Below, piece by piece: positions 24,195 through 43,488 of a stretch of 64,000 bases of DNA (position 1 is its first letter; each line of letters begins with the position of its first letter). The position numbers and the translations under genes were made by a program. The stretch lies in assembly GCA_022711395.1 (NCBI GenBank), contig JAKLFA010000006.1, forward strand, positions 154-64,153. Direction: 5' to 3'. Below the pieces are notes generated by a model, which did no database searches, was not told the DNA's origin, and saw only the letters and a list, made by a program, of their open reading frames with translations. The stretch comes from Candidatus Omnitrophota bacterium (GTDB taxonomy: Bacteria; Omnitrophota; Gorgyraeia; Zapsychrales; JANLHA01).

Positions 24195-24290
24195 TAGTTC
24201 TTTAAAGAATTCTTGTCCTCAGGGGCCCGTGCGTACTCTGGGGCAAGGTCTGTCAAGGGATCGTCATGTATTCAGACACAAGGGGAAAAT

Positions 24291-25568
24291 ATGGTTACTC
24301 AAAATGTTACAGCAATAGTCGTGGCCGCAGCGTTGATCCTGAACCCGATTCTTTCGTATTCAGCGCAGCCGGCGTCTTTGAATGCACTCGTCGATGAAGC
24401 GGTCAAGAATAATCAGCAAGTCCAGGCAGCCAAAAAACGTTGGGAGGCAAGCCTGGCGCGCGTGCCGCAGGCCAGATCGCTGGAGAATCCCACCATCGGC
24501 GTTACAGTTGAAAATATTCCGCGCGGTACCGTTAAGCTGGACAAGACGGCGCCCGAAGACAGGATGTTGTCATTTTCGCAGTTTTTGCCTTTTTTCGGAA
24601 AACTCAAGCTGAAGGGTAAGATCGCCCTTGTCGAATCACAGATGATGGCGGTGGATTATAAAAATACGGAATTGGTAACGATCAACCAGGTCAAGAATTC
24701 CTATTATGAGCTGTTTATGAACACCAAGGAGATCGAGCTTTTAAAAGAGAGCTTGAAATTGTTGGAGGGCGTCGCCGGGGCTGCCGAGGCCTCGTATGCG
24801 GTGGGCGACATAAAACAAGAGGGAGTTTACAAACTCCATTTAGAAATCGCCAAGCTCAACACGGACATCTTGAATTTGGAGCAGGAAAAAAGATCCATAG
24901 AAACGAGGCTGAACGCGCTGCTCAACAGGGAACCGGAAAGCGCTTTGGCCACGCCGGAGCTCAATGAGGACGTGAGCTTTGATCACGATATTCAATCCTT
25001 ATATGACCTGGCCCTTCGCCGTCAGCCGGAGCTCATGATTTTTTCCTATGCGATTGAAAGGAACAAACACGCCAAATCCCTGGCGAAGAAAAGTTTTTTC
25101 CCGGATCTGATGGCAACGGTCACGCAGCGGGGGATAGCCTCCGGGGCCATCGGTTCCTGGGACATCATGCTTTCCTTTACGGCTCCTTTATGGTTTTGGA
25201 CCAAGCAGCGCTATGAGGTGAAAGAGGCCATCGCGAATTTGGAAGAGGCCGAGGCGGCGTATATCGTCATGAAAAACAAGGCCCTGAGCGAGGTCAAGGA
25301 TCTGACCGTTGGAATCGAGAGCGCGAAAAATAAAATCAATCTGTATAAGACGAGTTTGATCCCCATCCTAGAAAGTTCGATCGCATCTTCAATGGCTGCG
25401 TACCAGTCGGGACAAAGCGAATTCATGATGCTGTTGGACAGCCAGCGGATGCTGGTGGAAACCAGGATGAATTATTATCAGGCGTTGGTGGATTACAATA
25501 TGGGCTTGGCTGATCTGGAACGCAGCCTGGGGGGCGAATTCAACGAGGTGAAAGAAAATGAAGAATAA
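24291..25568 (+). CDS. Outer-membrane efflux protein (TolC/CusC family)
   Basis: Signal peptide, two OEP repeats, about 425 aa, coiled-coil-rich; it precedes the MFP and RND genes. Confidence 0.85.
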   Translation: MVTQNVTAIVVAAALILNPILSYSAQPASLNALVDEAVKNNQQVQAAKKRWEASLARVPQARSLENPTIGVTVENIPRGTVKLDKTAPEDRMLSFSQFLPFFGKLKLKGKIALVESQMMAVDYKNTELVTINQVKNSYYELFMNTKEIELLKESLKLLEGVAGAAEASYAVGDIKQEGVYKLHLEIAKLNTDILNLEQEKRSIETRLNALLNREPESALATPELNEDVSFDHDIQSLYDLALRRQPELMIFSYAIERNKHAKSLAKKSFFPDLMATVTQRGIASGAIGSWDIMLSFTAPLWFWTKQRYEVKEAIANLEEAEAAYIVMKNKALSEVKDLTVGIESAKNKINLYKTSLIPILESSIASSMAAYQSGQSEFMMLLDSQRMLVETRMNYYQALVDYNMGLADLERSLGGEFNEVKENEE

Positions 25569-26664
25569 ACTATTAAGCGTTATTTTAGTGTTCTCAGTGT
25601 TTGCGGGTTATCAATTCTACGGTGAGGGCGGCTCGGCTTATGCTCAGCACGAAGGCCATCAGGAAGCGAAACCGAAGGCCGAACAGTCCGCGCCGCGCGC
25701 GCCGGTCTATTACTGCCCGATGCATCCGTCGTATATTTCGGACCGGCCGGGGGACTGCCCGATCTGCAACATGAAATTGATCAAGAAAAAAGAAGCCGAA
25801 CACGAAGAAAAGGCCATGGCCGGGTCCGGTGAAAAAGACGCGGGCTTTTATGTCAGCCTGGAAAAGCAACAGGTGGTCGGGGTGAAGGCCGAGGAGGTTA
25901 TTTACAGGCCCTTGAGCAGGATCATCAGGACCGTAGGCCGGGTGGCCTTTGATCCGGAGCTGTATAAAGCGCAGCAAGAATATATCGAGGCGCTCAAGAC
26001 CCAGGAATCCGTCCTGGAATCGGGGCAAGACATCCTTGTCCGGCGGGCGGACGCTTTGGTTGAGGCCGCGAAGTTAAAATTGAAGCTGCAAGGGCTGGAC
26101 ATAGCACAGATCGATGAACTTCAAAAAACAAAAGAGAATGACCCGTCCTTGCTGATCTCTTCTTCGGAATCGAAGTTCACGTGGGTGTACGCCACGATTT
26201 ATGAGTATGAGCTTGAATGGATCAAGCTTGGCCAGGAGGCCGAAATTCATGCCACGTCGTATCCGGGGAAAACATTTAAGGGCAAGATCGTGGCGATCGA
26301 CCCTGTTTTTGATGCGATGACCCGGACGGTGCGCGCGAGGATCAAAGCGGAGAATTCAGACGGCCTTTTAAAACCGGACATGTATGTGGATGTGCAGATG
26401 CGTTCGGATTTAGGGGCGCATTTGGCGGTGCCCAGGGAAGCGGTCATGGACTCGGGGGTGCGCAAGATCGTGTTTCTTGCGTTGGACTCCGGACGCTTTA
26501 AGCCGGTTGAGGTCAAGACCGGTGTTTCCAGCGAAGATTATGTTCAAGTATTAGAAGGGCTGAACGAAGGCGACAGGGTGATTGTTTCAGGAAATTTCCT
26601 GATGGATTCTGAAAGCAAACTCAAAACGGCCCTGGAAGGCGCGGGCCATCAGCATGGTCAATAG
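25558..26664 (+). CDS. Efflux RND periplasmic adaptor (CusB/HlyD family) with an N-terminal metal-binding motif
   Basis: YYCPMHPSYISDRPGDCPICNMKL (Cys-pair and Met motif typical of CusB-type heavy-metal MFPs) followed by a beta-barrel/lipoyl fold. Confidence 0.85.
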   Translation: MKNKLLSVILVFSVFAGYQFYGEGGSAYAQHEGHQEAKPKAEQSAPRAPVYYCPMHPSYISDRPGDCPICNMKLIKKKEAEHEEKAMAGSGEKDAGFYVSLEKQQVVGVKAEEVIYRPLSRIIRTVGRVAFDPELYKAQQEYIEALKTQESVLESGQDILVRRADALVEAAKLKLKLQGLDIAQIDELQKTKENDPSLLISSSESKFTWVYATIYEYELEWIKLGQEAEIHATSYPGKTFKGKIVAIDPVFDAMTRTVRARIKAENSDGLLKPDMYVDVQMRSDLGAHLAVPREAVMDSGVRKIVFLALDSGRFKPVEVKTGVSSEDYVQVLEGLNEGDRVIVSGNFLMDSESKLKTALEGAGHQHGQ

Positions 26665-26682
26665 GACCGGTGAGGACAGGAT

Positions 26683-29600
26683 ATGAGAACAGTGATAGAA
26701 AGAATCATAGAGTTTTGCGCGAAGAATAAGTTTATTGTATTCGTTCTTGTTGGCATGGTGACGCTGGGAGGGTATTTAGCGCTGCGCAGCCTTCCGCTGG
26801 ATGCGTTGCCCGACCTTTCGGATACCCAGGTGATCGTTTATTCCCGATGGGACCGCTCGCCGGATATTATCGAGGACCAGGTCACGTACCCCATTGTGAC
26901 TTCCTTATTGGGGGCGCCGAAAGTCAAGGCGATCCGGGGGTTTTCGGATTTTGGGTACTCGTTTGTGTATGTCATTTTTGAGGACGGCACGGATATTTAT
27001 TGGGCGCGCTCACGGACGCTGGAATATCTGTCCAAAGTTTCTTCGCAGCTTCCGGAAGGAGTGCGCACAGAATTGGGCCCCGACGCCACGGGGGTAGGAT
27101 GGGTTTTCCAATATGCCCTGGTCGATGAGAGCGGAAAAAATTCTCTGGCGGATTTGAGGACGTTTCAGGATTGGTATTTGCGGTATCAACTCCAGAGTGT
27201 TCCGGGCGTGGCTGAAGTGGCGCCGATCGGGGGTTTTGTCCGGCAGTATCAGGTCAACATTGAACCGAACAAACTGCTGGCTTACAACATCCCGATCACC
27301 GAGGTCGTGGAGGCGATCCGCAAAGGAAATAATGACGTGGGCGGACGGCTGCTGGAAATTTCCGGCGCTGAATATATGGTGCGCGGCAGGGGTTACGCGC
27401 GCTCGGTCGAAGATATTGGAAACATTGTGTTGAGGGCTGACCCAAAGACAGGCGCACCCATCCTGGTCAAAAATATCGGCAACGTCGTTTTGGGACCGGA
27501 TATGCGCAGAGGCATTGCGGACCTTGACGGCAAAGGGGATGTTGTCGGAGGGATCGTTGTCATGCGCCACGGCGAGAACGCTTTGCGGGTCATCGACAGG
27601 GTCAAAGAAAAAATAAAAGAGATCGAGCCGGGCCTGCCTGAGGGCGCAAAGATCGTGACGACCTATGACCGCACAGAGCTTATCCATCGGTCCCTTGAGA
27701 CCATTAATGAAGTGCTGATTGAGGATTTTTTGATCGTGGCGGCCATGATCATTTTTTTTCTGCTACATATTCCTTCATCGGTAATGCCGATCATCATTCT
27801 GCCGATCGGCGCTTTGGTCGCGTTCATTCCGATGCTTGGAATGCGGCTGACCGTCAATATCATGTCGATCATGGGCATCATCCTGGCGATCGGAGATATG
27901 GTCGACGTGGGAGTCGTGTTGGTCGAGAATGTCCATACGAAACTCAATGAGCTCAAAGAAGGGAAGATCAGCGGTGAGCGTAAAGAGGTCATGATCGCGG
28001 CCTTGAAAGAAGTCGGGCCGCCCATATTTTCATCGCTCATGGTTACGGTCATTGGCTTTATACCTCTGTTCAGTTTGGTGGGCCAGGAAGGCCGCCTTTT
28101 CCGGCCGATGGCGGCCACGCAGATATTTACGGTCTTTTGCGGGGCGGTGCTTTCAGTGACTCTGGTTCCGGCTTTGGTTATGATCTTTTTAGCCAAGGCG
28201 AAGCCTAGGAATCTCGAGGACCACTTCGCCTCCAGATTTTTGATGAAGCAGCACCAGAGGATTCTCGGGCTTGCGTTGAGGGGGCGCAAAGCTGTTGTTG
28301 TGCTTTTGATCTTGGCCTTGGCGGTGACCGTGCCGGTGTTTTTGAAATTGGGCTCGGAATTTATGCCGCCGTTATATGAAGGAAGCATCCTGTATATGCC
28401 CACGACCCTGCCGGGCATCTCGGTCACCGAGGCGCAGAAGTTATTGCAGGTCCAGGACAGGATCTTAAAAAGTTTTCCTGAAGTGGAGCGTGTTTTTGGT
28501 AAGGCGGGCCGAGCCGAGACCGCCACAGACCCCGCGCCCTTTTCCATGATGGAGACAACGGTCATTTTGAAATCCCGTGAGCATTGGCGTAAAGTCCCGA
28601 TGTTCGGAAAATTCCTGCCTTTTCTTAAAAGGACGATGAGCTTTGAGGAATTGACCGGCGAGATGGATCAAAAAATGCAGTTTCCCGGAGTGACCAATGC
28701 CTGGACCATGCCCATCAAGGCGCGCATTGATATGCTGACGACCGGGGTGCGCACACCCATCGGTATAAAGATATTCGGCGCGGATCTTAAAGAGATCGAA
28801 AAATTGGGTGAGCATATTGAAATGGTCTTAAACGATGTCCCCGGCACGCGCAGTATCTATGCGGAGCGCACCGCCGGAGGATACTTTGTGGACTTTGACC
28901 TCAAGCGGGAGCAATTGGCCAGATACGGGATCAGCGTTGAAGAGGCAGAAATGGTCATCATGTCTGCGGTGGGGGGAGAAACGATCACCACCACGGTTGA
29001 AGGCCGGGAGCGTTATTCGGTCAATGTGCGCTACGCCCGTGAATTCCGCGATGATATTGAAAAATTAAAACGGGTTCTGGTGCCGACGATGTCGGGGGCG
29101 CAGGTGCCGTTGGCGCAGCTTGCCGATATCAAATTGACGTTAGGGCCGTCGATGATCCGGAATGAGAACGGTCTCTTGTCCGGATATGTCTATGTTGACA
29201 TGGCGGGCCGCGATATCGGAAGTTACGTGCGGGACGCCAAAAAAGCCGTGAGCCGGAATGTTACGCTTCCAACGGGATACTCCATCACCTGGAGCGGCCA
29301 GTATGAATATATGGAGCGGGTCCAGCAGAGGCTTGGGATCCTTATCCCGGCGACGCTCCTGATCATTTTTCTGGTGTATTATTTCAATTTCAAATCTGCT
29401 GTTTCTGTTATGTTCATCATGCTGGCCATGCCGTTTACGGCTATCGGGGCCATCTGGAGCATCATGCTCTTAGGGTTTAATATGTCCATTGCCGTCTGGG
29501 CGGGGATGATGGAGGTGGTGGGGATCGGGGCCGCACTTTGCGCACTGATCACGACGTTTATCCACGCCGAGTGGGAAAGAGCGACGGCCGGAGGAAAACA

Positions 29601-29880
29601 CATAAAGACGATGGATGAACTTTACCAGGTTGTTTCTCAGGGCGCAGGAAGGGCCATGCGGCCGGCCATGATGACCTGCTCGGCGGATATTTTAGGGCTT
29701 ATGCCGGCGATGTTTGCCACCGGCATCGGCGCGGAGTTTTTGAAGCGCTATACCGCGCCGATCATTTTTGGATTATTCAGCGCGCTTGTTTTATCGCTGA
29801 TCGCTCTGCCGGTGTTTTATGTGATCTGGAGAGGGGATTTCGGGATATTGCGTCAGAAAAAACGGATTGATCGTGTATAA
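26683..29880 (+). CDS. Heavy-metal efflux RND transporter (CusA/CzcA family)
   Basis: 1065 aa, 12 TM helices with two large periplasmic loops, HME-RND signature regions (AIGDMVD in TM4, methionine-rich periplasmic cleft). Confidence 0.9.
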   Translation: MRTVIERIIEFCAKNKFIVFVLVGMVTLGGYLALRSLPLDALPDLSDTQVIVYSRWDRSPDIIEDQVTYPIVTSLLGAPKVKAIRGFSDFGYSFVYVIFEDGTDIYWARSRTLEYLSKVSSQLPEGVRTELGPDATGVGWVFQYALVDESGKNSLADLRTFQDWYLRYQLQSVPGVAEVAPIGGFVRQYQVNIEPNKLLAYNIPITEVVEAIRKGNNDVGGRLLEISGAEYMVRGRGYARSVEDIGNIVLRADPKTGAPILVKNIGNVVLGPDMRRGIADLDGKGDVVGGIVVMRHGENALRVIDRVKEKIKEIEPGLPEGAKIVTTYDRTELIHRSLETINEVLIEDFLIVAAMIIFFLLHIPSSVMPIIILPIGALVAFIPMLGMRLTVNIMSIMGIILAIGDMVDVGVVLVENVHTKLNELKEGKISGERKEVMIAALKEVGPPIFSSLMVTVIGFIPLFSLVGQEGRLFRPMAATQIFTVFCGAVLSVTLVPALVMIFLAKAKPRNLEDHFASRFLMKQHQRILGLALRGRKAVVVLLILALAVTVPVFLKLGSEFMPPLYEGSILYMPTTLPGISVTEAQKLLQVQDRILKSFPEVERVFGKAGRAETATDPAPFSMMETTVILKSREHWRKVPMFGKFLPFLKRTMSFEELTGEMDQKMQFPGVTNAWTMPIKARIDMLTTGVRTPIGIKIFGADLKEIEKLGEHIEMVLNDVPGTRSIYAERTAGGYFVDFDLKREQLARYGISVEEAEMVIMSAVGGETITTTVEGRERYSVNVRYAREFRDDIEKLKRVLVPTMSGAQVPLAQLADIKLTLGPSMIRNENGLLSGYVYVDMAGRDIGSYVRDAKKAVSRNVTLPTGYSITWSGQYEYMERVQQRLGILIPATLLIIFLVYYFNFKSAVSVMFIMLAMPFTAIGAIWSIMLLGFNMSIAVWAGMMEVVGIGAALCALITTFIHAEWERATAGGKHIKTMDELYQVVSQGAGRAMRPAMMTCSADILGLMPAMFATGIGAEFLKRYTAPIIFGLFSALVLSLIALPVFYVIWRGDFGILRQKKRIDRV

Positions 29881-29896
29881 CCATAAGGAGGAAAAG

Positions 29897-30247
29897 ATGC
29901 TGAACCGTATTTTAATTTTGGCAGTTGTTGTGAGCGCGGCCACAATGACGTTTGTTGAGGTGAGTCGCGGGGAGGAGAATCCTCAACAGCCAATGCAAGC
30001 CTACACAGGGCATGGTTCGCCTGCTGTTGTCGGGCAAAATGCGCCGCAGGCGCCTGTCAATGCAGGCAACAAGGTTTGCCCGGTTTCGGGGGTAGAGGTG
30101 GGTCAGGACGGCATGGAACCGGCGACATATGAGCACAACGGCAAGATCTATAATTTCTGCTGCGCGATGTGCATTGATGAGTTCAAGGGCGATCCTGAGA
30201 AGTATATCAAAAAGGTGGAGGAAGAGCTGCAGGGCGCATCAAAATAA
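29897..30247 (+). CDS. Secreted YHS/TRASH-domain metal-binding protein (paralog 2)
   Basis: Signal peptide; NAGNKVCPVSG...IYNFCCAMCIDEFKGDPEKYI; aaggagg RBS. Confidence 0.65.
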   Translation: MLNRILILAVVVSAATMTFVEVSRGEENPQQPMQAYTGHGSPAVVGQNAPQAPVNAGNKVCPVSGVEVGQDGMEPATYEHNGKIYNFCCAMCIDEFKGDPEKYIKKVEEELQGASK

Positions 30248-30362
30248 AATTTGGCCTGATAGGTGTTCCTGTTTTATTTTCCGGCTTGTTCAAAGGGCGG
30301 AGGGTGTGTTATAATTTTTTCCGTTTGCCAGGGCAAAAACAGTCCAATTCACAGGAACCAGC

Positions 30363-30914
30363 ATGGCCAAGAAAAAAATCTTAGTTGTCGACGACCAGCG
30401 TGACATGCAGCTGTTATTGAAAAAATGGCTGGAGGCGGCTGGTTATGAGGTGATCCAGGCGGAGGATGGCGAGCCGGGCCTGTGGATGGTCATTGAACAC
30501 AGGCCTGACCTTGTTTTGACCGACGTGGTCATGCCTAACATGAACGGGATAGAGTTTGTCAGAAGGCTGCGAGGTGTTGACGGTGGAGAGGCCGTCCCGG
30601 TGATCGTGACTTCAAGCCGGCCGTTGATGGTCAACTGTTTTGAGGAGGGCGCGATCGAGGGATTTTTTGCCAAGCCGATCGACCGTGAAGGGCTGCTTAA
30701 AAAGATCGCGGAAATTTTTGACCGTCAGGAAGTTCTAAAAGACCTGGAGGCCATAAAAAAACGCGATGAGGCTCATCCTTCCATCAGCGCGCCTAGAGGG
30801 CCGGGCCGCAAGCAATATGTTTGCAAGCGTTGTGGTAAGGCGCTCGATGATCCGGATGAACATTGTCCCCACTGCGGCTGCGCAGAGTCGTTGATCAGGG
30901 AAGTCTTTGATTGA
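30363..30914 (+). CDS. Single-domain response regulator (REC) with a C-terminal C4 zinc-ribbon
   Basis: KILVVDDQ...VLTDVVMPNMNGIEF (phospho-acceptor Asp) and a C-terminal CKRCGKALDDPDEHCPHCGC. Confidence 0.75.
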   Translation: MAKKKILVVDDQRDMQLLLKKWLEAAGYEVIQAEDGEPGLWMVIEHRPDLVLTDVVMPNMNGIEFVRRLRGVDGGEAVPVIVTSSRPLMVNCFEEGAIEGFFAKPIDREGLLKKIAEIFDRQEVLKDLEAIKKRDEAHPSISAPRGPGRKQYVCKRCGKALDDPDEHCPHCGCAESLIREVFD

Positions 30915-31179: not shown

Positions 31180-31231
31180 TAGAGAAATTATTCACTATTA
31201 ACTTGACATGAGGAAAAGTGTGTGCTTTAAT
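31180..31231 (+). promoter_or_regulatory. Promoter of the hydrogenase operon (TTGACA-17-TTTAAT with TGc extended -10) preceded by a Rex-box-like site
   Basis: TTGACA at 31203-31208 and TTTAAT at 31226-31231. TAGAGAAATTATTCACTA at 31180-31197 resembles the Rex operator TTGTGAA-N4-TTCACAA (11 of 14 defined positions). Confidence 0.4.
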
Positions 31232-31269
31232 TATAGCGAAATAAATCACCATTAAGAACGGAGTTTTTT

Positions 31270-31767
31270 ATGAATGCTGTTGAACAGGGTTTTCAGCGTG
31301 ATTTGGAGCGGATCAATCAGATCGTTGAAAAAAACGGCAATGACCGCACGCATTTGATCGCGATCCTGCAGGATATTCAGCATGAGTTCCGCTTCCTCCC
31401 CGAAGAGGTTTTGATCTATCTTTCTACGGTCATGAACATTCCGCTGTCCAGTATTTACGGGGTGGCGACATTTTACGGCCAGTTCAGTTTGGAGCCGAAG
31501 GGGAAGTTCGAGATCAAAGTCTGCGATGGCACGGCCTGCCATGTGCGTAAAAGCGGCGTCATTATTGAGGCGATCCGCAAAAAGCTTGGCCTGACAGCCG
31601 GAAAAAAAACCACTGATGACCTGAAATTCACATTCGAAACGGTCAGCTGCCTGGGGGCTTGCGGCCTGGCGCCGGTCGTGGTCATTAATGAGAAGGTCTA
31701 CCCGCAGGTCACCCCTGAAAAAATAAGTCAGATCATCGATCAATATAAAAATGAAGAGGAGTCGTAG
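31270..31767 (+). CDS. NuoE-like thioredoxin-fold [2Fe-2S] subunit of NAD(P)-linked [FeFe]-hydrogenase (HydC/HndA)
   Basis: CDGTACHVRKSG ... VSCLGACGLAPVV four-Cys pattern; 165 aa. Confidence 0.85.
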   Translation: MNAVEQGFQRDLERINQIVEKNGNDRTHLIAILQDIQHEFRFLPEEVLIYLSTVMNIPLSSIYGVATFYGQFSLEPKGKFEIKVCDGTACHVRKSGVIIEAIRKKLGLTAGKKTTDDLKFTFETVSCLGACGLAPVVVINEKVYPQVTPEKISQIIDQYKNEEES

Positions 31768-31769
31768 GA

Positions 31770-33581
31770 ATGGCCGAACAGGATGGAACAGGCAAAAGGG
31801 TCTTGGTCTGCTGCGGCACGGGATGCGTGGCCAACGGAGCCTATGATGTTTTGAAAAAATTCCAGGAACACGGCGTGGGCGCCGAACTGAAAAAGTGCGG
31901 CGGGGAGGTCAAAGCCGTTCCCACGGGATGTCATGGTTTCTGCGAAAATGGCGTGCTGGTGGATTTTCCTGACGATAAAGTTACGTATATCAAGGTTAAG
32001 CCTGAGGACGTGGATGAGATCATTGAACAGCATTTAAAGGGCGGCCAGACGGTCGAGCGTCTGCTTTACAGGGACCCGCAGACGCGGCAGGCGGTGGTGC
32101 ATGCCTCTGAGATGACGTTTTATAAAAAACAGATCCGGACATCCTTAAAGAATTGCGGCAAGCTCAATCCGGAAGATATTGAGGAGTTTCTGGCGCTGGA
32201 TGGTTATCAGGCCTTGAAAAAGGCTTTGAGCTTAAAGCCTGAGGAGGTCTGCCGCGAAGTCGAATTGAGCGGTTTGCGGGGGCGCGGCGGTGGCGGCTTT
32301 CCGACCGGACGAAAGTGGGAGTTTGTCCGCAAGGCGGCCGGGGACAAAAAATATGTCATCTGTAACGGCGATGAAGGTGATCCGGGAGCGTTCATGGACC
32401 GCAGTGTCATGGAAGGAGATCCTTTCAAATTGCTGGAAGGCATGACGATTGCGGCCTTTGCTGTCGGGTCCGATGAGGGCTATATTTATGTCCGCGCGGA
32501 GTATCCCATGGCGATCAAGCGGCTGCGCATCGCGATCCGGCAGGCCAGGGAGAGGGGATTTTTGGGAAGAGATATTTTAGGCAGCGGGCTGAGTTTCGAT
32601 GTTCATATTAAGGAAGGCGCGGGGGCGTTTGTCTGTGGGGAAGAGACCGCGCTGATCGCTTCCATCGAAGGCAAGCGGGGCATGCCGATGTCGAAACCGC
32701 CGTTTCCGGCGAGCCAGGGGCTGTTCGGAAAACCGTCCTTGATCAACAATGTCGAGACGCTGGCCAATGTTCCGCTGATCCTTTTGAACGGAGCACCATG
32801 GTTCCGCGGTTTCGGCACGGAACGGAGCCCGGGAACGAAGACCTTTGCCCTGACGGGTGAGGTGTGCAATTCCGGGCTTATTGAAGTGCCCATGGGGACC
32901 ACGCTTCGTCAGATCATTTTTGACATCGGCGGGGGGATCCGTAACGGAAAGAAGTTCAAGGCTGTCCAGATCGGCGGGCCGTCGGGCGGGTGCCTGACCG
33001 AAGAGCATCTGGACATGCCTTTGGATTATGAAGCGCTCACGGCGGTGGGCGCGATGGTCGGATCAGGGGGCCTTGTGGTCATGAACGAGGACACGTGCAT
33101 TGTTGAGGTGTCGCGTTTTTTCATGAATTTCACGCAGCATGAATCATGCGGCAAGTGCACCTTGTGCCGTGAAGGGACGAAAAACATGCTCTATATCCTT
33201 GAAAAGATCATTCAGGGCAAGGCCGGCCTGGAAGATCTGGACCTGCTGGAAGAGCTCGCGGCCGCGGTCAAGGACGGATCGCTGTGCGGGCTGGGTAAGT
33301 CAGCGCCTAATCCTGTCCTTTCGACGCTGAAATATTTCCGGGATGAGTATATGGCGCATATTAACGAACATCGCTGTCCTGCGGGGGCGTGTTCCGCCAT
33401 GAAGAAGATCGTGATCGATCAGGCCTTGTGCAAGGGTTGCAGCAAGTGCGCTCGCGTCTGTCCGGCAGGGGCGATCACCGGAGTGATCAAGCAGCCGTAT
33501 ACGATCCGGCAGGAAACGTGCATTAAATGCGGGGCGTGCCTGGACGTTTGTCCGTTCCACGCCATTCAAAAAGAAGGATAA
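31770..33581 (+). CDS. NuoF-like flavoprotein subunit (HydB/HndC) with an N-terminal 2Fe-2S domain and two C-terminal 4Fe-4S ferredoxin motifs
   Basis: GLRGRGGGGFPTGRKW (NADH/FMN), ICNGDEGDPGAFMDR, SCGKCTLCREG (N3 cluster), C-terminal CKGCSKCARVCP and CIKCGACLDVCP. Confidence 0.9.
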   Translation: MAEQDGTGKRVLVCCGTGCVANGAYDVLKKFQEHGVGAELKKCGGEVKAVPTGCHGFCENGVLVDFPDDKVTYIKVKPEDVDEIIEQHLKGGQTVERLLYRDPQTRQAVVHASEMTFYKKQIRTSLKNCGKLNPEDIEEFLALDGYQALKKALSLKPEEVCREVELSGLRGRGGGGFPTGRKWEFVRKAAGDKKYVICNGDEGDPGAFMDRSVMEGDPFKLLEGMTIAAFAVGSDEGYIYVRAEYPMAIKRLRIAIRQARERGFLGRDILGSGLSFDVHIKEGAGAFVCGEETALIASIEGKRGMPMSKPPFPASQGLFGKPSLINNVETLANVPLILLNGAPWFRGFGTERSPGTKTFALTGEVCNSGLIEVPMGTTLRQIIFDIGGGIRNGKKFKAVQIGGPSGGCLTEEHLDMPLDYEALTAVGAMVGSGGLVVMNEDTCIVEVSRFFMNFTQHESCGKCTLCREGTKNMLYILEKIIQGKAGLEDLDLLEELAAAVKDGSLCGLGKSAPNPVLSTLKYFRDEYMAHINEHRCPAGACSAMKKIVIDQALCKGCSKCARVCPAGAITGVIKQPYTIRQETCIKCGACLDVCPFHAIQKEG

Positions 33582-35623
33582 TGTTCATGAGCGATAGACT
33601 TTTGAATAAGACAATGTTCATAGACGGAAAAGAATATGCCTATGACGGAGAACGTAACGTGCTCGAGGTCCTGCGCAAAGCGGGTTATGATATTCCGACC
33701 CTGTGCTATCGGTCGGACCTGAGCGTTTATGGCGCTTGCCGCATGTGCGTGGTGGAGATCGAAGGGAAAGGGGTCGTCACCAGCTGCACAATACCCCCGG
33801 AGCCGGGCATGAAGATCAGGGTGAACACCGCCCGCGTGCGCCGTGTGCGCAAGATATCGCTGGAGCTTTTACTGGCGAATCACCATCGTGACTGCACCAC
33901 GTGTTTAAAGAGCGGGGATTGCGATCTTCAGCATTTGGCGAATAAGATGGGGATCAAGGATATCCGTTTTGCTCCCCGTCAGGAGACACTGGCCGTTGAC
34001 AGCGCCAATCCATCCATTGTCCGCGATCCGAACAAATGCATCCTGTGCGGCGCCTGCGTCCGTGTTTGCCGTGAGGTCCAGGGGAAGAACGTTCTGGATT
34101 TCACCCATCGCGGTTCCAAGACGGTGGTGAGCCCTGCTTATAATAAAAAATTGTCGGAGGTAGACTGCACCTACTGCGGCCAGTGCGTGGCCGTCTGCCC
34201 GACGGGAGCCCTACGGGTCAAGTCGGACATTGAGAAGGTGTGGAATGGCCTGGGGGACCCTTCTAAAAAGGTGATCGTTCAGGTCGCGCCGGCCGTGCGC
34301 GTGGCTGTCGCGGAAGCGTTCCGTTTCCCCGCGGGAACAAACCTCATCGGCATGATCACGGCCGTGCTCAGAAGGCTGGGCTTTGATAAGGTCTTTGACA
34401 CGACCTTCGCGGCTGACCTGACGATCATGGAAGAGGCCGCGGAATTCGCGGACCGCTTAAAGAACAATGGGCCGTTGCCGCTGATGACCAGCTGCTGCCC
34501 GGCGTGGGTCAAGCTGGTGGAACAAAAATATCCGCAGTTTTTGGAAAATCTTTCAAGCTGCCGTTCACCCCAGCAGATGTTCGGCGCCGTGGCGAAAAAG
34601 CTGCTGGCTGCTCACTATGGGATCGATCGTAAAGACCTTGTGGTGGTCTCCGTGATGCCCTGCACGGCCAAAAAGGCGGAAGCCCGTCGGCCTGAATTCC
34701 GGCAGGGGGAACAACTCGATGTCGACATCGTGATCACGACGCAGGAATTGATCAAAATGATCAGGGAATCAGGCGTTGATCTGCGTCAGGTCAAGGAGGA
34801 GCCGATGGACCTTCCTTTCGGGGAACATACCGGCGCGGGCGTGATCTTTGGTTCATCCGGAGGAGTGGCCGAGGCGGCGCTGCGGACCGCTGTAGAATGG
34901 GTGACCGGAGCTCCGGTCAAGGACATCGATATCAAAGAGGTCAGAGGGGTAGAAAGTTTTAAGGAGCTTCAGCTGATGCTCAATGGTTCCATGGTCAAGG
35001 TCGCGGTCGTCAACACCCTTCAGCAGGCCGCGTGCCTGCTGGACCAGATCAAAAAAGGAGAATGTGATTATCATTTGATCGAAGTTATGGCCTGTCCGGG
35101 AGGGTGCATCGGAGGGGCGGGGCAGCCGTATAGCATCGATAATAATCTGCTCAGGATCAAGCGCAGCCAGGGGCTGTATGATATCGATCAGAACATGCCT
35201 GTTCGAAAATCGCATGAGAACCCGCAAATTAAACGGCTATACGGTGAGTGGCTGAAAGAGCCCAACAGCCATCTGGCGCATGAACTGCTTCATACCGGAT
35301 ATCACAGCAAACGGCGCATTCAGGCGCGGGACGTCAACCTGAGCCCGGGGTCCCGGACGGACGTCGTCGATGTCAGAGTCTGCGTGGGGACGTCATGCTA
35401 TTTGCGCGGGGCCTATGATTTTATCGGGATCTTAAAGAAGGAGATCGAGGCGCACGGGTTGGGCGGATCCGTGGATATCAAAGGGACGTTTTGTTTGGAG
35501 CATTGCGGCAAAGGCCCCAACATTATGATCGACGGGGAGTTGGTCCATCATGCTGTTCCTGAACGCGCCAGGGAGATCTTTGATCAATACATTCTTCCCA
35601 AATGCAAAAAGGAGGTCGGATAA
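33581..35623 (+). CDS. hydA: [FeFe]-hydrogenase catalytic subunit (HydA/HndD) with an N-terminal 2Fe-2S plus 4Fe-4S domain and a C-terminal thioredoxin-like [2Fe-2S] domain
   Basis: H-cluster motifs TSCCPAWV (L1), MPCTAKKAEARR (L2) and EVMACPGGCIGGAGQP (L3). The C-terminal CVGTSC...CLEHCGKGP is NuoE-like. ATG at 33581 overlaps the hydB stop; a second ATG at 33587 is also possible. Confidence 0.9.
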   Translation: MFMSDRLLNKTMFIDGKEYAYDGERNVLEVLRKAGYDIPTLCYRSDLSVYGACRMCVVEIEGKGVVTSCTIPPEPGMKIRVNTARVRRVRKISLELLLANHHRDCTTCLKSGDCDLQHLANKMGIKDIRFAPRQETLAVDSANPSIVRDPNKCILCGACVRVCREVQGKNVLDFTHRGSKTVVSPAYNKKLSEVDCTYCGQCVAVCPTGALRVKSDIEKVWNGLGDPSKKVIVQVAPAVRVAVAEAFRFPAGTNLIGMITAVLRRLGFDKVFDTTFAADLTIMEEAAEFADRLKNNGPLPLMTSCCPAWVKLVEQKYPQFLENLSSCRSPQQMFGAVAKKLLAAHYGIDRKDLVVVSVMPCTAKKAEARRPEFRQGEQLDVDIVITTQELIKMIRESGVDLRQVKEEPMDLPFGEHTGAGVIFGSSGGVAEAALRTAVEWVTGAPVKDIDIKEVRGVESFKELQLMLNGSMVKVAVVNTLQQAACLLDQIKKGECDYHLIEVMACPGGCIGGAGQPYSIDNNLLRIKRSQGLYDIDQNMPVRKSHENPQIKRLYGEWLKEPNSHLAHELLHTGYHSKRRIQARDVNLSPGSRTDVVDVRVCVGTSCYLRGAYDFIGILKKEIEAHGLGGSVDIKGTFCLEHCGKGPNIMIDGELVHHAVPERAREIFDQYILPKCKKEVG

Positions 35624-35624
35624 G

Positions 35625-36524
35625 ATGGAGATTCCTCTTCCCACGCTCAAGAGGCTGCCGGTGTATTACGCGATCTTTTCGGACGCGCACGCTCAGGGAA
35701 AGACCTTTATTTCGAGTCAGGAGATATCGGACATCTTAGGCATTGATAAGACCCAGGTGCGCAAGGATATTGCCTTGACCGGGTATGTGGGCAAGCCCAA
35801 GATCGGCTATGACGTCAAAGGGTTCATGGAGCACCTTGACCGTTTTCTTGGATTCAAGCAGGAAAAACGGGCCGTCATGATCGGCGCCGGGAACCTCGGG
35901 GGGGCGATCGCCCGGTATACAGGACTTCAGCAATACGGGTTTGTCCTGGCGGGTGTTTTCGACAGCGATCCGGCCAAGATCGGCACCCTGGTCGGGGGCC
36001 TGAAGGTCCAGCCCATGGACGAACTCGAGGGGACGATCAGGAAAGAACAGGCGACCCTGGCTGTGCTGGTGGTGCCTGGCGAGTCCGCCCAGGCAGTGGC
36101 GGAAAGGGTGATCTCCGCCGGAATTGAGGGGATATGGAATTTTACGCCGTCTCAGCTTAAGGTCCCGGAGCGCGTGGCATTGTGGAATCAGAACCTCACG
36201 GCGTCCTTTTTGGCGTTATCGATGATGATGCGCAAGGAGCCGGTCCGGGTCCCTTACGATAAGTCCGAAGGGGCCAGGGAGTCACTGTATCTGTGCATGG
36301 GTTCCGCCTGTCATCAGAGGGGATCGTTCTTTGTCCTTGAGACATTGAAGGGGATGCTTCAGCAATATGACGTGTCGGACAAGATCGAGCTCAAGGGCGC
36401 CTTTTGTCTCGGGCATTGTTCCGACGGGATAACTATGAAATTCCGGGACCAGATCCTGACCGGCATTTCCAAAGAAAACATTCAAGAAAGATTTCTTAAG
36501 GAGATCTTTCCGTTTATTGGATAA
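35625..36524 (+). CDS. rex: Redox-sensing repressor Rex fused to a C-terminal thioredoxin-like [2Fe-2S] ferredoxin domain
   Basis: N-terminal PTLKRLPVYY wHTH and the Rossmann GAGNLGGAI NADH-binding motif (Rex hallmarks), then an extra ~95 aa carrying CMGSAC...CLGHC (a CxxxxC...CxxxC NuoE/HndA-type motif). Confidence 0.8.
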   Translation: MEIPLPTLKRLPVYYAIFSDAHAQGKTFISSQEISDILGIDKTQVRKDIALTGYVGKPKIGYDVKGFMEHLDRFLGFKQEKRAVMIGAGNLGGAIARYTGLQQYGFVLAGVFDSDPAKIGTLVGGLKVQPMDELEGTIRKEQATLAVLVVPGESAQAVAERVISAGIEGIWNFTPSQLKVPERVALWNQNLTASFLALSMMMRKEPVRVPYDKSEGARESLYLCMGSACHQRGSFFVLETLKGMLQQYDVSDKIELKGAFCLGHCSDGITMKFRDQILTGISKENIQERFLKEIFPFIG

Positions 36525-36535
36525 CGGAGGAGGCC

Positions 36536-37045
36536 ATGATGAAGGCGGCAAAAAAGACCCTGTGGGAACTGCTGTGGGATTATGACCCCAACGGATTGCT
36601 TGTCATGGACACGGATTACAACATCCTCGTTGTCAATCAGGCCTTGTGCAATATGATCCGTAAACAGCATCAGGACATGATCGGCCGCAACGCCGGAGAA
36701 TTTTTTGATGACATTGCGGATTTTCGCTACGCGTGGGAAAGTTCGCAGATCATCAAGGCCAAGGAGAAGACATATCCTCAGTATGACCTTCATGTCAGGA
36801 AGGTCATTTTTCCAATTAAGGACGAAAAGATCATCGCCTGCATCATGGTGGACGTGACCCACGAATGGCGTCAACAGTTGGAGATGGAAAAGCTCAAGGA
36901 GAACGTCATTGAACAGGTCAACAGTGTTGTGGACCAGCAGATGAAGGTCGCGCAGGAAATTGCCGGCCTGCTCGGCGAGACAACGGCCGAAACGAAAGTG
37001 GCGGTGCTGAAACTGGTGGATATGCTCAAACGTGAAAGAGAGTAG
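36536..37045 (+). CDS. PAS-domain sensor protein (single domain)
   Basis: PAS fold pattern (LLVMDTDYNILVVNQALCNMI...DMIGRN...). No output domain; RBS aacggaggagg. Confidence 0.6.
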   Translation: MMKAAKKTLWELLWDYDPNGLLVMDTDYNILVVNQALCNMIRKQHQDMIGRNAGEFFDDIADFRYAWESSQIIKAKEKTYPQYDLHVRKVIFPIKDEKIIACIMVDVTHEWRQQLEMEKLKENVIEQVNSVVDQQMKVAQEIAGLLGETTAETKVAVLKLVDMLKRERE

Positions 37046-37048
37046 GGC

Positions 37049-38203
37049 GTGGACCTGGTCTATGATTTTTATGAAAAAAGCCTGAGGAAGCATCAGGAGG
37101 AGCTTTGCGGGGACGCGGTGAAGATCACGCGAGCCAACGGCAAGACCGTGGCGGTCCTTTCAGACGGCCTGGGAAGCGGCGTGAAGGCCAATATCCTGGC
37201 CACCTTGACCAGCGAAATCGTGAGCACGATGCTCAACAATAACGTTTCACTGGAAGAAGTGATGCGCACGGTTCTGGGGACGCTGCCCATTTGTCAGGTT
37301 CGCAATATGGCTTACGCGACATTCACTGTTCTGGAGATCGATGAGCGGCGCAACAGGTTCAAGGTCATTAACACCGATAATCCGCCGATCTTTTATATCC
37401 GGGACGGACAGATCCGCCGCCCACTGCGCTGCCAGGAACGGATCCTGAACCGCGATGTTTTTGCCCATGAGGGAGACCTGAAAGAAGGAGACTTTATCGG
37501 CATGGCCTCGGACGGAGTTTTATACGCCGGTCTTGGAAAGAGCATGAATTTCGGATGGGGCTGGGAACAGATCGGGCAGTTTCTTGAAGAGACCCTGCGG
37601 ATCAAAGAGATATCGGCCCAGGAGATCGTGAACGCTTTAATGGAGGAGACCGAGGCTCTGTATGGTGGAGAAGTAGGGGACGACGCGACGTTCGTCGGAA
37701 TGAGGGTCAGGCAAAAAAGGAACTTGATCCTTTTTACCGGGCCTCCTTTGGATAAAAGCAAAGACAGCCGCGTGGTGGAAGAGTTCATGCGGTTTAACGG
37801 GCGCAAAGTCGTCTGCGGGGGGACCACGGCCAATATCGTTTCGGATTATCTTCAGGAACCGATCGAAACGGATATCGGGTCCATGAGCGAGGACACGCCC
37901 CCTCTTGGAAGGATTAAGAACGTCGACCTGCTGACCGAAGGGATCATCACGCTGTCGCGCACGATCGACCTGCTCAGGAAAAACAGAAAGATGCTCCTGA
38001 AGCAAAGGAATACCGGCGCCATGGCGCTATTGTCCGAGCTGCTTTTTGCCGATCATATCGTGATCTTCGCTGGCCGCACGATCAACCCGTATTATCAGAA
38101 CCCGATCCTGCCCAAGAACATTTCCATCCGGCTGAGCCTCGTCAATGAATTGGCCGATCTTTTAAGGTCGCTTCGGAAAGATGTCCTGATCCGGCTTTTT
38201 TAG
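37049..38203 (+). CDS. PP2C-type serine phosphatase (SpoIIE/RsbU family) with a C-terminal extension of unknown function
   Basis: GTG start. CGDAVKI...AVLSDGLGSGVKANI...FIGMASDGV matches the PPM metal-binding motifs; about 150 aa of unassigned C-terminal sequence. Confidence 0.65.
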   Translation: MDLVYDFYEKSLRKHQEELCGDAVKITRANGKTVAVLSDGLGSGVKANILATLTSEIVSTMLNNNVSLEEVMRTVLGTLPICQVRNMAYATFTVLEIDERRNRFKVINTDNPPIFYIRDGQIRRPLRCQERILNRDVFAHEGDLKEGDFIGMASDGVLYAGLGKSMNFGWGWEQIGQFLEETLRIKEISAQEIVNALMEETEALYGGEVGDDATFVGMRVRQKRNLILFTGPPLDKSKDSRVVEEFMRFNGRKVVCGGTTANIVSDYLQEPIETDIGSMSEDTPPLGRIKNVDLLTEGIITLSRTIDLLRKNRKMLLKQRNTGAMALLSELLFADHIVIFAGRTINPYYQNPILPKNISIRLSLVNELADLLRSLRKDVLIRLF

Positions 38204-41868: not shown

Positions 41869-43488
41869 ATGAACGGTTTCAGCATGCAGCGTGTTTTTTT
41901 TCTGGTTTTGATGGGCTCGGTCCTTTTGTCCGGATGCACGACGATGGGAGGGGTCGCGGACATGGCGGATCAGAACAATATGGCGGGACTTCGAGGCCTG
42001 GTCCAGCAGGGCGCGGACGTCAACACGCCTGGCCTTCTGGGGTTTACCGCGCTTCATAATGCGGCTTTAAAGGGAAATGCTGAGATGGTCAAATTTCTTC
42101 TGGACCATGGAGCCAACACTGAGGTCGAGGTGCTGAGCGTGACGCCTTTGCTGCAGGCGATCTGGAAGGGACACACGGAAGTGGTGCGCCTTCTGGTGGC
42201 AGCCGGGGCGAATGTCAACAGGGCGCAAAGTTCTCACGGCGCCACGCCGATGACATATTGCGGCGCTTACGGTAATGCTGAGATAGCCCGCATCCTAGTC
42301 GATGCCGGCGCCGATGTTCACGCTAAGGATAAACGGGGAAAGACCGCGGTTGATCTTGCCGTGGAATACAAGAATTTCGAAGTGCTCGCGGTCCTGCGGA
42401 AGGCCGGCGTGGATGTTCCTTATGCGGGCGACCTTCAAAAAGACACGATCATGGCGATCCTTTCAGAGGATCGGCCGAAAGTCCTGTCCCTGCTCGATCA
42501 AGGGGCGGACCCTAACACAAAGACAAAGTCCGGAAAAGGTCTTTTGGCCTACGCTGTTTCGTATCAATGGCCTGATGTGGTTGAAGCGCTGATCAAAAAG
42601 GGCGCGGATGTGACGGTCAAGGATGAAACGGGGTGGACATTGGCCATGACCGCAGCCCTGGAAAATCAGGAGGAAATCGTTAAGGCGTTTGAGCAAGCGG
42701 GGGTCCAGGTGCCGTATTGCGGGGACAAGCAGAAAGACCTTTTGATCGCCGTGCTGTGGGAGGATAAAGAGAAAGTTTCGGAACTGTTATCGCAGGGGGC
42801 GGACGTCAACGGCCGTTATCGTTACAATTCACCGTTGTTGAATTACGCGGCCGTAAAAAAAGACATCGGCATGGCGGAACTTCTTTTAGATAAAGGCGCG
42901 GACCCCAACAGTGTTAATTCGTACGGGATCGGGCCGCTGATCGCCGCTCTTAATAAAGGAAGCGACACGTCCCTGGCTAAATATTTACTGCAACGCGGGG
43001 CGAATGCCGATGTTAGAAATGGTCAGGGCGTCTCGGCCTTGAACTTTGCGGTGGTCACCGGGGATGCGGATTTGGTCCGCTATATGCTGGAGCGCGGGGC
43101 AAAGCCGGATATCACCTCGGTGCTTTTAGCCCAGGGGAAAGTGGCCGGCCATACGGACATCAATTTTCCAGAGATCGCCGAGCTTTTAAGGCCTGAGGTC
43201 TTGCGCCGTCAGATGCTCAGGGCACAGGCCGCTGTTGAGTCCGCCCAGTCGCCGGAAGATTACCGCAAGGCGATCGCGGAATATAATGTGGCCAAAGAGC
43301 TGGCGCCGGATTTGGCTGAAATTTATTACAATCTCGGCCTGGTGCAGGAACAGGCCGGGTTTTACGCTGACGCGATCGTCAACCTGCAGAAATACCTGCA
43401 GCTTTCTCCCGGTGCCGCGGATACTCAGGCCGTCACGGACATGATCTATAAGCTGGAATATAAAAGAGACCAGGTCCTTAAGCAGTAA
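41869..43488 (+). CDS. Ankyrin-repeat lipoprotein (about 12 ANK repeats) with a C-terminal TPR-like segment
   Basis: Lipobox LLSGC; repeated G-TPLH-A...G....V..LL..GADVN units throughout. Confidence 0.85.
   Translation: MNGFSMQRVFFLVLMGSVLLSGCTTMGGVADMADQNNMAGLRGLVQQGADVNTPGLLGFTALHNAALKGNAEMVKFLLDHGANTEVEVLSVTPLLQAIWKGHTEVVRLLVAAGANVNRAQSSHGATPMTYCGAYGNAEIARILVDAGADVHAKDKRGKTAVDLAVEYKNFEVLAVLRKAGVDVPYAGDLQKDTIMAILSEDRPKVLSLLDQGADPNTKTKSGKGLLAYAVSYQWPDVVEALIKKGADVTVKDETGWTLAMTAALENQEEIVKAFEQAGVQVPYCGDKQKDLLIAVLWEDKEKVSELLSQGADVNGRYRYNSPLLNYAAVKKDIGMAELLLDKGADPNSVNSYGIGPLIAALNKGSDTSLAKYLLQRGANADVRNGQGVSALNFAVVTGDADLVRYMLERGAKPDITSVLLAQGKVAGHTDINFPEIAELLRPEVLRRQMLRAQAAVESAQSPEDYRKAIAEYNVAKELAPDLAEIYYNLGLVQEQAGFYADAIVNLQKYLQLSPGAADTQAVTDMIYKLEYKRDQVLKQ

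Follow-up and report, generated by a model that had tools for sequence, protein, structure and literature searches.

Rex repressors are treated as pure sensors of the NADH/NAD+ ratio, and a Rex protein with an iron-sulfur (Fe-S) cofactor of its own would, if real, be a two-signal redox regulator. Is there such a protein, and to what would its second signal be connected? The question is raised by a gene, here named rexFd, that lies directly downstream of [FeFe]-hydrogenase genes in a stretch of 64,000 nucleotides from a Candidatus Omnitrophota bacterium (JAKLFA010000006.1, assembly GCA_022711395.1, positions 154 to 64,153, forward strand; this whole stretch is called the window below). Its open reading frame (ORF), at 35625-36524 on the + strand, runs unbroken for 299 amino acids (aa) through a full Rex protein and then a thioredoxin-like [2Fe-2S] domain of about 80 aa. 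On balance, we lean towards RexFd being an autoregulatory Rex whose tethered redox cofactor connects it, as a second input, to a signalling pathway of the type that includes the sensory hydrogenase HydS.

A Rex protein with an appended thioredoxin-like domain

The original prediction had proposed that a Rex repressor is fused here to a thioredoxin-like [2Fe-2S] domain, and evidence from Pfam, NCBIfam, fold comparison and cysteine positions bears this out. The gene divides as follows.

35625..36230, + strand: Rex part of rexFd, aa 1-202, with a winged helix (aa 2-49), a Rossmann fold and a C-terminal helix (aa 191-202)
36231..36278, + strand: linker, aa 203-218, with gaps and low conservation in the orthologue alignment and a predicted local distance difference test score (pLDDT) down to 77-83
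36279..36524, + strand: thioredoxin-like [2Fe-2S] domain, aa 219-299, recognized by PF01257, four cysteines and Foldseek
36294-96, 36309-11, 36405-07 and 36417-19, + strand: codons of the four cysteines, read from the sequence

RexFd is a member of the Rex family, and every defining feature that could be tested was found in it. Among the profiles suggested for checking the original prediction, Put_DNA-bind_N (PF06971) matched aa 2-49 with 61.9 bits and CoA_binding (PF02629) matched aa 79-175 with 75.2 bits, while the NCBIfam Rex equivalog NF003994 scored 231.4 bits against a cutoff of 130. The QVRKD columns of the recognition helix are invariant across RexFd orthologues, as are the Rossmann-fold residues G87-A-G89-N-L-G92 (GAGNLG, aa 87-92) and F112-D113, which align with those of the Thermotoga maritima Rex (5zz5). 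The C-terminal helix, which is domain-swapped in Rex dimers, can be seen in the monomer model, where it overlays the helix of known Rex structures; the swap itself would show only in a dimer. By analogy with other Rex proteins, DNA binding by RexFd should be relieved by NADH.

The third suggested profile, 2Fe-2S_thioredx (PF01257), matched aa 217-288 with 23.4 bits, narrowly below its gathering score of 24.8. This match is limited to profile positions 64-139 of 145, the C-terminal half, and the score is below threshold because the domain has only half the length of the profile. Other fusions of Rex with a short domain of this kind exceed the gathering score (P0242, 30.3 bits; P0170, 27.1; L085, 32.8). 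The four cysteines, C224-x4-C229-x31-C261-x3-C265, fit the pattern C-x4-C-x(29-35)-C-x3-C, which is kept in the other fusion lineages, and they align with the four cysteines of the C-terminal domain of T. maritima HydA (7p5h_A 566-642; phmmer, E 1e-8). In the structural model the domain has a block-averaged pLDDT of 86-98 and a Foldseek match to 7p8n_a over 88 columns, and the model thus assigns it a thioredoxin-like fold. By its cysteines and fold, it is predicted to bind a [2Fe-2S] cluster.

An assembly error or frameshift joining two genes had been named in advance as the observation that would overturn the fusion, as had the loss of the four cysteines in orthologues. Neither was observed. 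A whole-protein homologue search covering 5.8 billion clusters returned the identical 299-aa protein on seven contigs (NCBI, JGI, ENA, Logan), whose records call it simply 'Rex', from Candidatus Omnitrophota, and six orthologues of 299-302 aa with 48-77% identity and the same architecture; the remaining matches were ordinary Rex proteins of about 207 aa. The orthologues come from independent samples and have the same junction, which refutes an artefact to the point where we consider it practically out of the question. Furthermore, all seven RexFd proteins keep C224, C229, C261 and C265 unchanged, and likewise the motifs CMGSACHQ and LKGAFCLG. The sequence and length of the linker, on the other hand, vary among orthologues.

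The hydrogenase operon and its predicted operators

The genes surrounding rexFd, and the regulatory elements in front of them, are listed below.

31180..31197, unstranded: operator O1, TAGAGAAATTATTCACTA, an inverted repeat just 5' of the -35 box; 19.7 bits by position weight matrix (PWM)
31203..31231, + strand: putative sigma-70-type promoter, with -35 box TTGACA (31203-08), a 17-bp spacer and a -10-like TTTAAT (31226-31)
31234..31251, unstranded: operator O2, TAGCGAAATAAATCACCA, directly 3' of the -10 box, over the expected transcription start; 19.2 bits by PWM
31270..31767, + strand: hydC, NuoE-like [2Fe-2S] subunit, 165 aa (PF01257, 171 bits, full length)
31770..33581, + strand: hydB, NuoF-like FMN/NADH subunit (Complex1_51K, NADH_4Fe-4S, Fer4, and PF01257 at aa 9-87)
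33581..35623, + strand: hydA, [FeFe]-hydrogenase catalytic subunit (Fe_hyd_lg_C, Fe_hyd_SSU, and PF01257 at aa 595-669)
36536..37045, + strand: PAS protein, 169 aa (PAS_9, 35.9 bits)
37049..38203, + strand: SpoIIE/PP2C-type Ser/Thr phosphatase, 384 aa (SpoIIE, 73 bits, aa 30-220)

The six genes stand in the order hydC-hydB-hydA-rexFd-PAS-PP2C, with gaps of at most 13 bases or overlaps between them. hydA probably starts at ATG 33581, overlapping the hydB stop codon (TAATG), and the ATG of rexFd (35625) is one base past the hydA stop codon (35621-23). HydA scores 796 bits against NF040763 (NADH-dependent [FeFe] hydrogenase, group A6; NCBIfam cutoff 765). HydB combines an N-terminal thioredoxin-like [2Fe-2S] module with two C-terminal [4Fe-4S] clusters, and PF01257-type modules are found in HydC, at the N-terminus of HydB and at the C-terminus of HydA, to which the Rex protein adds a fourth in the operon. 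The same six-gene block surrounds the three orthologues that lie on long contigs (PAS protein of about 168 aa, SpoIIE/PP2C of about 385 aa), so that, as the original prediction had suggested looking for, the fusion recurs beside [FeFe]-hydrogenase genes in related genomes. In the four Omnitrophota-type genomes with this block, the flanking genes are unrelated in each.

The promoters in front of the four orthologous hydC genes have diverged, save for the TTGACA -35 box and an 18-bp inverted repeat after the -10 region. This repeat, O2 in the window, is the best-conserved block of the four promoters, with TAGTGAATTTAATCACGA in L001, TCGTGAAAAGAATCACAA in L003 and TAGTGAAATAAATCACCA in L005; O1-like upstream sites are also present in L001 (5479) and L005 (5524). 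A PWM was built from the L001, L003 and L005 promoters only, leaving the window out. It ranked O1 (19.7 bits) and O2 (19.2 bits) as the two best sites of the window, followed by an unrelated site at 10.0 bits, with a maximum of 16.6 bits in shuffled sequence. The two operators are thus the only strong matches in 64 kb; they lie 54 bp apart and bracket the -35 and -10 boxes of the hydC promoter. The original prediction had placed a Rex-box-like sequence at 31180-31197, and this site proved to be the top PWM match; O2 had been missed.

Both operators share the core G(T/C/A)GA-N6-TCAC, in which GTGA-N6-TCAC is as in canonical Rex boxes while the flanks differ. Each has 3-4 mismatches to the canonical Rex consensus TTGTGAA-N4-TTCACAA; O1 has three, a match that by itself is not significant. 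A search with this consensus, allowing up to three mismatches, gave 7 matches in the window against 3.4 expected and missed O2; it was uninformative because of the differing flanks, and was replaced by the PWM. The promoter itself is read from the sequence as a probable sigma-70-type promoter. TTGACA with an AT-rich hexamer is readable in three orthologous promoters (the automatic alignment lines up three of four), and a consensus promoter scanner made no call at the window promoter, whose -10 box is without A at position 2. A terminator-like hairpin lies 5' of the hydC promoter region.

Given this arrangement, a RexFd dimer would bind O1 and O2 on either side of the promoter, repressing the hydC-hydB-hydA-rexFd-PAS-PP2C operon and with it its own gene, and would leave the operators when NADH rises relative to NAD+, as other Rex proteins do.

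Other genes of the window were recorded in passing. Upstream of the operon, 24213-30914 encodes a CusCBA-type efflux system (OEP; HlyD with a heavy-metal-binding domain; AcrB-like), together with a YHS-domain protein (29867-30247); the response regulator encoded at 30363-30914 ends in a zinc ribbon where an output domain would be usual. At 41869-43488 lies the gene of a 539-aa protein with many ankyrin repeats followed by TPR repeats.

A ferredoxin-PAS/HydS-PP2C signalling module

The original prediction had pointed out that the four-cysteine pattern of RexFd also occurs in HydC and at the C-terminus of HydA. The shared pattern stands, and so do the common fold and PF01257 membership; the likeness to both is nevertheless one of fold only (24-27% identity). 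A recent duplication of the C-terminal domain of HydA, encoded a few hundred bases upstream, as the source of the RexFd domain was considered and rejected on these identities, as compared with those to free small ferredoxin-like proteins (hereafter Fd). When the C-terminal 96 aa of RexFd were used as a separate query, the closest relatives were free proteins of 84-111 aa with 40-57% identity, and the free relatives overall have 80-125 aa and about 40-60% identity. One 99-aa match at 76% identity, on an 844-bp contig, is probably a fragment of a fusion.

Three of these free Fd proteins were checked in their genomic context. Each is followed by a PAS protein of about 165 aa and then by a SpoIIE-type phosphatase of about 386 aa, the same two genes that follow rexFd. 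No rex gene was found near these three loci, and two of them (L006 and L008) have no hydrogenase gene within about 7 kb. A survey with the phosphatase profile against one genome per species gave at least 597 relatives, and the best 80 of these at least 597 loci were annotated by ORF calling and BLASTP. Among these 80, the order Fd-PAS-PP2C is found in 44 and Fd-HydS-PP2C in 13, HydS being a protein of about 570 aa with H-cluster and PAS domains. A free Fd occupies the slot upstream of PAS or HydS in 57 loci, a PAS-only protein without H-cluster domain is present in 58, and in 49 a NuoF-like gene lies no more than 9 kb away. These 80 loci belong to Cyanobacteria, Armatimonadota, Chloroflexota, Planctomycetota, Atribacterota, Spirochaetota, Thermotogae, Bacillota and others.

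PAS-only proteins and HydS are closely linked. In an alignment of 85 PAS-only proteins and HydS C-termini, the former match the last 170 aa of the latter along their whole length and share the motif QEIAgLLGETTAETK, which the window PAS protein has at about aa 139-153 (QEIAxLLGETTAETK). Furthermore, aa 90-162 of the window PAS protein align by BLASTP with the C-terminus of the HydS encoded in locus L012, and Pfam detects no H-cluster (Fe_hyd_lg_C) domain in its 169 aa. By homology, it corresponds to the C-terminal PAS module of HydS without the catalytic domain. Neither the PAS-only proteins nor the HydS C-termini have a conserved cysteine or histidine; therefore, Fd is the only recognizable cofactor-bearing part of the PAS-type triad. 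When compared along its entire length with the PP2C that accompanies HydS in L012, the window phosphatase is 34% identical; it has the motifs SDGLGSGVK and CGGTT(A/G)N and a C-terminal domain of about 160 aa. These alignments indicate that the genes after rexFd are a HydS-type signalling pair without its hydrogenase 'head', and that the window carries a HydS-type pathway but not HydS itself.

Two aspects of the module were noted in their own right. The C-terminal domain of the window phosphatase (aa about 225-384, 37724-38203) has no Pfam, NCBIfam or PDB sequence match, PDB matches covering aa 12-221 only; in this domain CGGTT, followed by A or G and then N, is invariant, as are several G, P and N positions. 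In filamentous cyanobacteria (L016-L041, L054, L061, L077; Floridaenema, Microseira, Limnospira, Planktothrix, Spirulina and others), Fd-PAS-PP2C lies a few kb 3' of hoxE/hoxF/hoxU-like genes, and our literature searches found no description of a HydS-type signalling pair without [FeFe]-hydrogenase beside Hox-type genes.

The position of the RexFd domain completes the comparison: it stands where the small ferredoxin of the module normally stands. Together with the identities given above, this argues that the domain is an orthologue of the free Fd that opens the Fd-(PAS or HydS)-PP2C module. The original prediction had left the PAS and PP2C genes out of account. Both are conserved together with the fusion, the one homologous to the PAS portion of HydS and the other to the HydS phosphatase, which makes their pathway no less likely than HydABC as the partner of the Fe-S domain.

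An Fe-S domain in a regulator of O2-sensitive [FeFe]-hydrogenase genes might instead serve as an O2 or oxidant sensor, oxidative damage to or loss of the cluster changing Rex activity and thereby shutting down or re-tuning hydrogenase expression, by analogy with FNR, IscR, RsrR and SoxR. Oxidant-sensing Fe-S transcription factors are well established, and the free triad is abundant in oxygenic filamentous cyanobacteria beside the hoxE/F/U-like genes (L016-L041). However, thioredoxin-like [2Fe-2S] domains of the NuoE/HydA type are electron-transfer modules rather than labile sensors (structures 7p5h, 6hl2), and the same Fd accompanies HydS in typically anaerobic groups such as Atribacterota and Clostridia, for which a signal of H2 or electrons is the simpler reading. 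We therefore regard oxidant sensing as quite improbable.

Recurrence of the fusion and its proposed role

An exhaustive HMMER search of 1.84 billion representatives revealed further fusions of Rex with a short Fd: P0170/P0312 (a cluster that includes Thermoguttaceae), P0242, and P0244/P0317 (a cluster that includes Aminicenantes). Such fusions are rare, with about 20 clusters among 5.8 billion, yet recurrent. Public annotation labels these proteins simply 'Rex', and our literature searches found no description of a Rex-[2Fe-2S] fusion. Their neighbours are hydABC, adhE or HydS-PP2C: the gene orders are rexFd-hydC-hydB-hydA in L010, adhE-rexFd in L011, rexFd-HydS-PP2C-Fd-hydrogenase in L012 and rexFd-HydS-PP2C in L085, a Clostridia metagenome-assembled genome whose clade comprises nine protein clusters, all fusions and all metagenomic. 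In L012 and L085, RexFd thus fills the Fd slot ahead of HydS-PP2C.

Grouping by the nearest-neighbour identity of both domains gave at least three groups of fusions (Omnitrophota; P0312 with P0242; P0317 with L085), and the plain Rex and free Fd proteins nearest to them differ from group to group. These identities suggest that the Rex-Fd fusion arose repeatedly. Neither the Omnitrophota PWM nor the canonical consensus yielded operators for the L010, L011, L012 and L085 fusions.

Other architectures and sites turned up in the same material. P0163/P0309 (L013, 8001-9152) and P0164 join Rex to a complete NuoE/HydC-like protein in 383-386 aa. P0161, P0162, P0177 and P0182 (394-443 aa) consist of two complete Rex units in tandem, which may be covalent Rex 'dimers' or gene-call fusions. 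Beside the Rex-Fd fusions of L012 (6575-6610) and L011 (4890-4975) lie repeated elements, TATCGATA and TTCGATAAAAAAATA, which are not Rex boxes and may reflect a different operator specificity. L058 has two near-perfect Rex boxes (11102-11174), TTGTGAAATTTATCACAA and TTGTGAAAATAATCACAA, which are spaced by 55 bp (54 bp between O1 and O2 of the window) and lie 5' of adhE and just 3' of rex-PAS-PP2C.

Recurrence bears directly on whether the fusion has any regulatory meaning. The Fd domain could be a HydD-like accessory subunit of the hydrogenase that became attached to Rex by loss of a stop codon between adjacent genes. [FeFe]-hydrogenase operons are known to encode small thioredoxin-like [2Fe-2S] proteins as subunits or ORFs of their own, one example being that of Pan et al. 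(2003), cited in PMC10055695; HydD of Thermoanaerobacter is a further example, and rexFd stands directly after hydA. Such an origin does not readily explain why at least three lineages have the fusion and why it persists down to about 48% identity, nor why in L011 it adjoins adhE, without any hydrogenase inside 8 kb. Moreover, HydABC already has the HydC, HydB N-terminal and HydA C-terminal modules, as in the trimeric T. maritima enzyme, and free Fd triads exist away from hydrogenase genes (L006, L008). The context makes a HydD-type role in the window improbable, and we judge an incidental fusion to be very unlikely.

In the reading that we favour, an autoregulatory Rex with a second, redox-borne input, the [2Fe-2S] domain would hang after the C-terminal helix on a flexible linker of about 16 residues. 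Because this domain is the orthologue of the free Fd, the fusion would wire Rex directly to the Fd-(PAS or HydS)-PP2C module, and this would most likely make the cluster's redox state a second input. The low-potential electron pool (reduced ferredoxin or H2) would set this state, through HydABC in the window and through the sensory hydrogenase HydS in other lineages. The cluster could then act directly on the binding of Rex to DNA, or through the PAS protein and PP2C. Hydrogenases of the HydABC type are NADH- and ferredoxin-dependent, and a dual input would suit the window enzyme if it works in this way. In its most specific form, the [2Fe-2S] domain would be reduced by electrons from H2 through HydS, or by electrons from HydABC or ferredoxin where the PAS protein is 'headless', and would switch Rex on or off its DNA, so that transcription directly follows the partial pressure of H2 or the redox state of ferredoxin as well as NADH/NAD+. 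We offer this form tentatively, as a possibility that is more probably wrong than right. Of this picture, the architecture with its conservation, the gene block, the operators, the homology of the module and the recurrence of the fusion are observed; cluster binding, redox sensing, contact with PAS or PP2C and the logic by which the inputs combine are inferred.

Several observations weigh against this view. The PF01257 score of RexFd falls short of the gathering score, and the independence of the fusion lineages is read from pairwise identities and not from a supported phylogeny. The PAS-PP2C link is not obligatory for Rex-Fd fusions in general, because L010 and L011 have no PAS-PP2C within 8 kb. 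With its variable linker, the Fe-S domain may just be tethered, with no allosteric effect. Finally, Rex and HydS/PP2C could be neighbours simply since both regulate hydrogenase genes, and no cognate kinase or phospho-acceptor was identified in the window, where no search was aimed at one.

The Fe-S domain could instead have a docking or adaptor function, in which it carries a structural cluster and only tethers Rex to PAS-PP2C or HydABC. What controls RexFd would then be its sequestration, or the addition and removal of phosphate at Ser/Thr, and not the redox state of the cluster. A variable, flexible linker is consistent with tethering, and Fd always adjoins PAS/HydS-PP2C. Furthermore, L058 (Anaerolineales) and L071 (Cloacimonadota) have a plain rex gene in the place of Fd, and plain rex stands divergently next to PAS-PP2C without Fd in L015, L024, L028 and L045, suggesting that Rex and PAS-PP2C are able to work together without a cluster. 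Conversely, the four cysteines are invariant over about 50% divergence and in every fusion lineage, no kinase or STAS-type phospho-acceptor was identified in the block (with the same limit on the search), and the L010 and L011 fusions count against docking as well. Taken together, we find docking doubtful.

The significance of a second input on Rex lies in what it might connect. Both Rex and HydS have been proposed, as separate regulators, to control these hydrogenases, and the regulator downstream of HydS/PP2C is not known (PMC6776011, PMC10084766); a role of HydS in hydrogenase regulation has been proposed with its output unknown (PMC6776011, PMC5707799), and rex genes have been noted in the literature near group C hydrogenases. 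A link from the putative H2-sensing HydS/HfsB and PP2C to gene expression bears on H2 and methane metabolism in the rumen and on the engineering of ethanol yield in thermophiles (PMC6776011, PMC5707799, PMC10084766). That Rex is repeatedly found fused to the protein which opens the module, including in rexFd-HydS-PP2C operons, points to a candidate partner for the HydS pathway and is a testable lead. The Fd-PAS-PP2C triad itself is widespread, including versions without a hydrogenase domain, and we found no description of it in the literature.

Compared with known members of the Rex family (T. aquaticus T-Rex, 1xcb/3ikt; B. subtilis Rex, 2vt3; T. maritima Rex, 5zz5; RSP, 3wg9), RexFd differs by the [2Fe-2S] domain of about 80 aa after its C-terminal helix. 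Known Rex proteins have operator half-sites TTGTGAA, from which the RexFd operators deviate (TAGyGAA / ATCAC), and rexFd, unlike the known Rex genes, lies inside the operon that it is predicted to control. The fusions of Rex with full-length NuoE (P0163/P0309, P0164) resemble RexFd in having PF01257 after Rex, but they match the whole 145-position profile with 124-165 bits, and the L013 locus of P0163/P0309 has no hydrogenase or PAS-PP2C nearby, unlike the window.

Likeness is also found to the C-terminal domain of T. maritima HydA (7p5h/7p8n) and to the NuoE/HydC/HoxE-type proteins (PF01257), which have the same fold and the same C-x4-C...C-x3-C arrangement with aligned cysteines. In contrast to these, the RexFd domain (24-27% identical) covers half the profile and is attached to a DNA-binding protein and not to an oxidoreductase. 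SoxR, IscR/RsrR/NsrR and FNR are likewise transcription factors with a redox-active Fe-S cluster, an analogy only: they have unrelated folds and hold the cluster in their own sensory domain, whereas RexFd would combine an appended electron-transfer module with an NADH sensor.

Another close system is that of HydS and PP2C, the group C 'sensory' [FeFe]-hydrogenase and its phosphatase (hfsB/hfsC of Thermoanaerobacterium; the hydS cluster of R. albus), of which the window phosphatase is a full-length homologue. The C-terminal module of HydS, including its QEIAxLLGETTAETK motif, is shared whole by the window PAS protein, and the HydS module likewise adjoins hydABC or adhE and has a small Fd upstream. 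The window differs in that it has the PAS part only, with no H-cluster domain, and in that its Fd is not free but fused to Rex.

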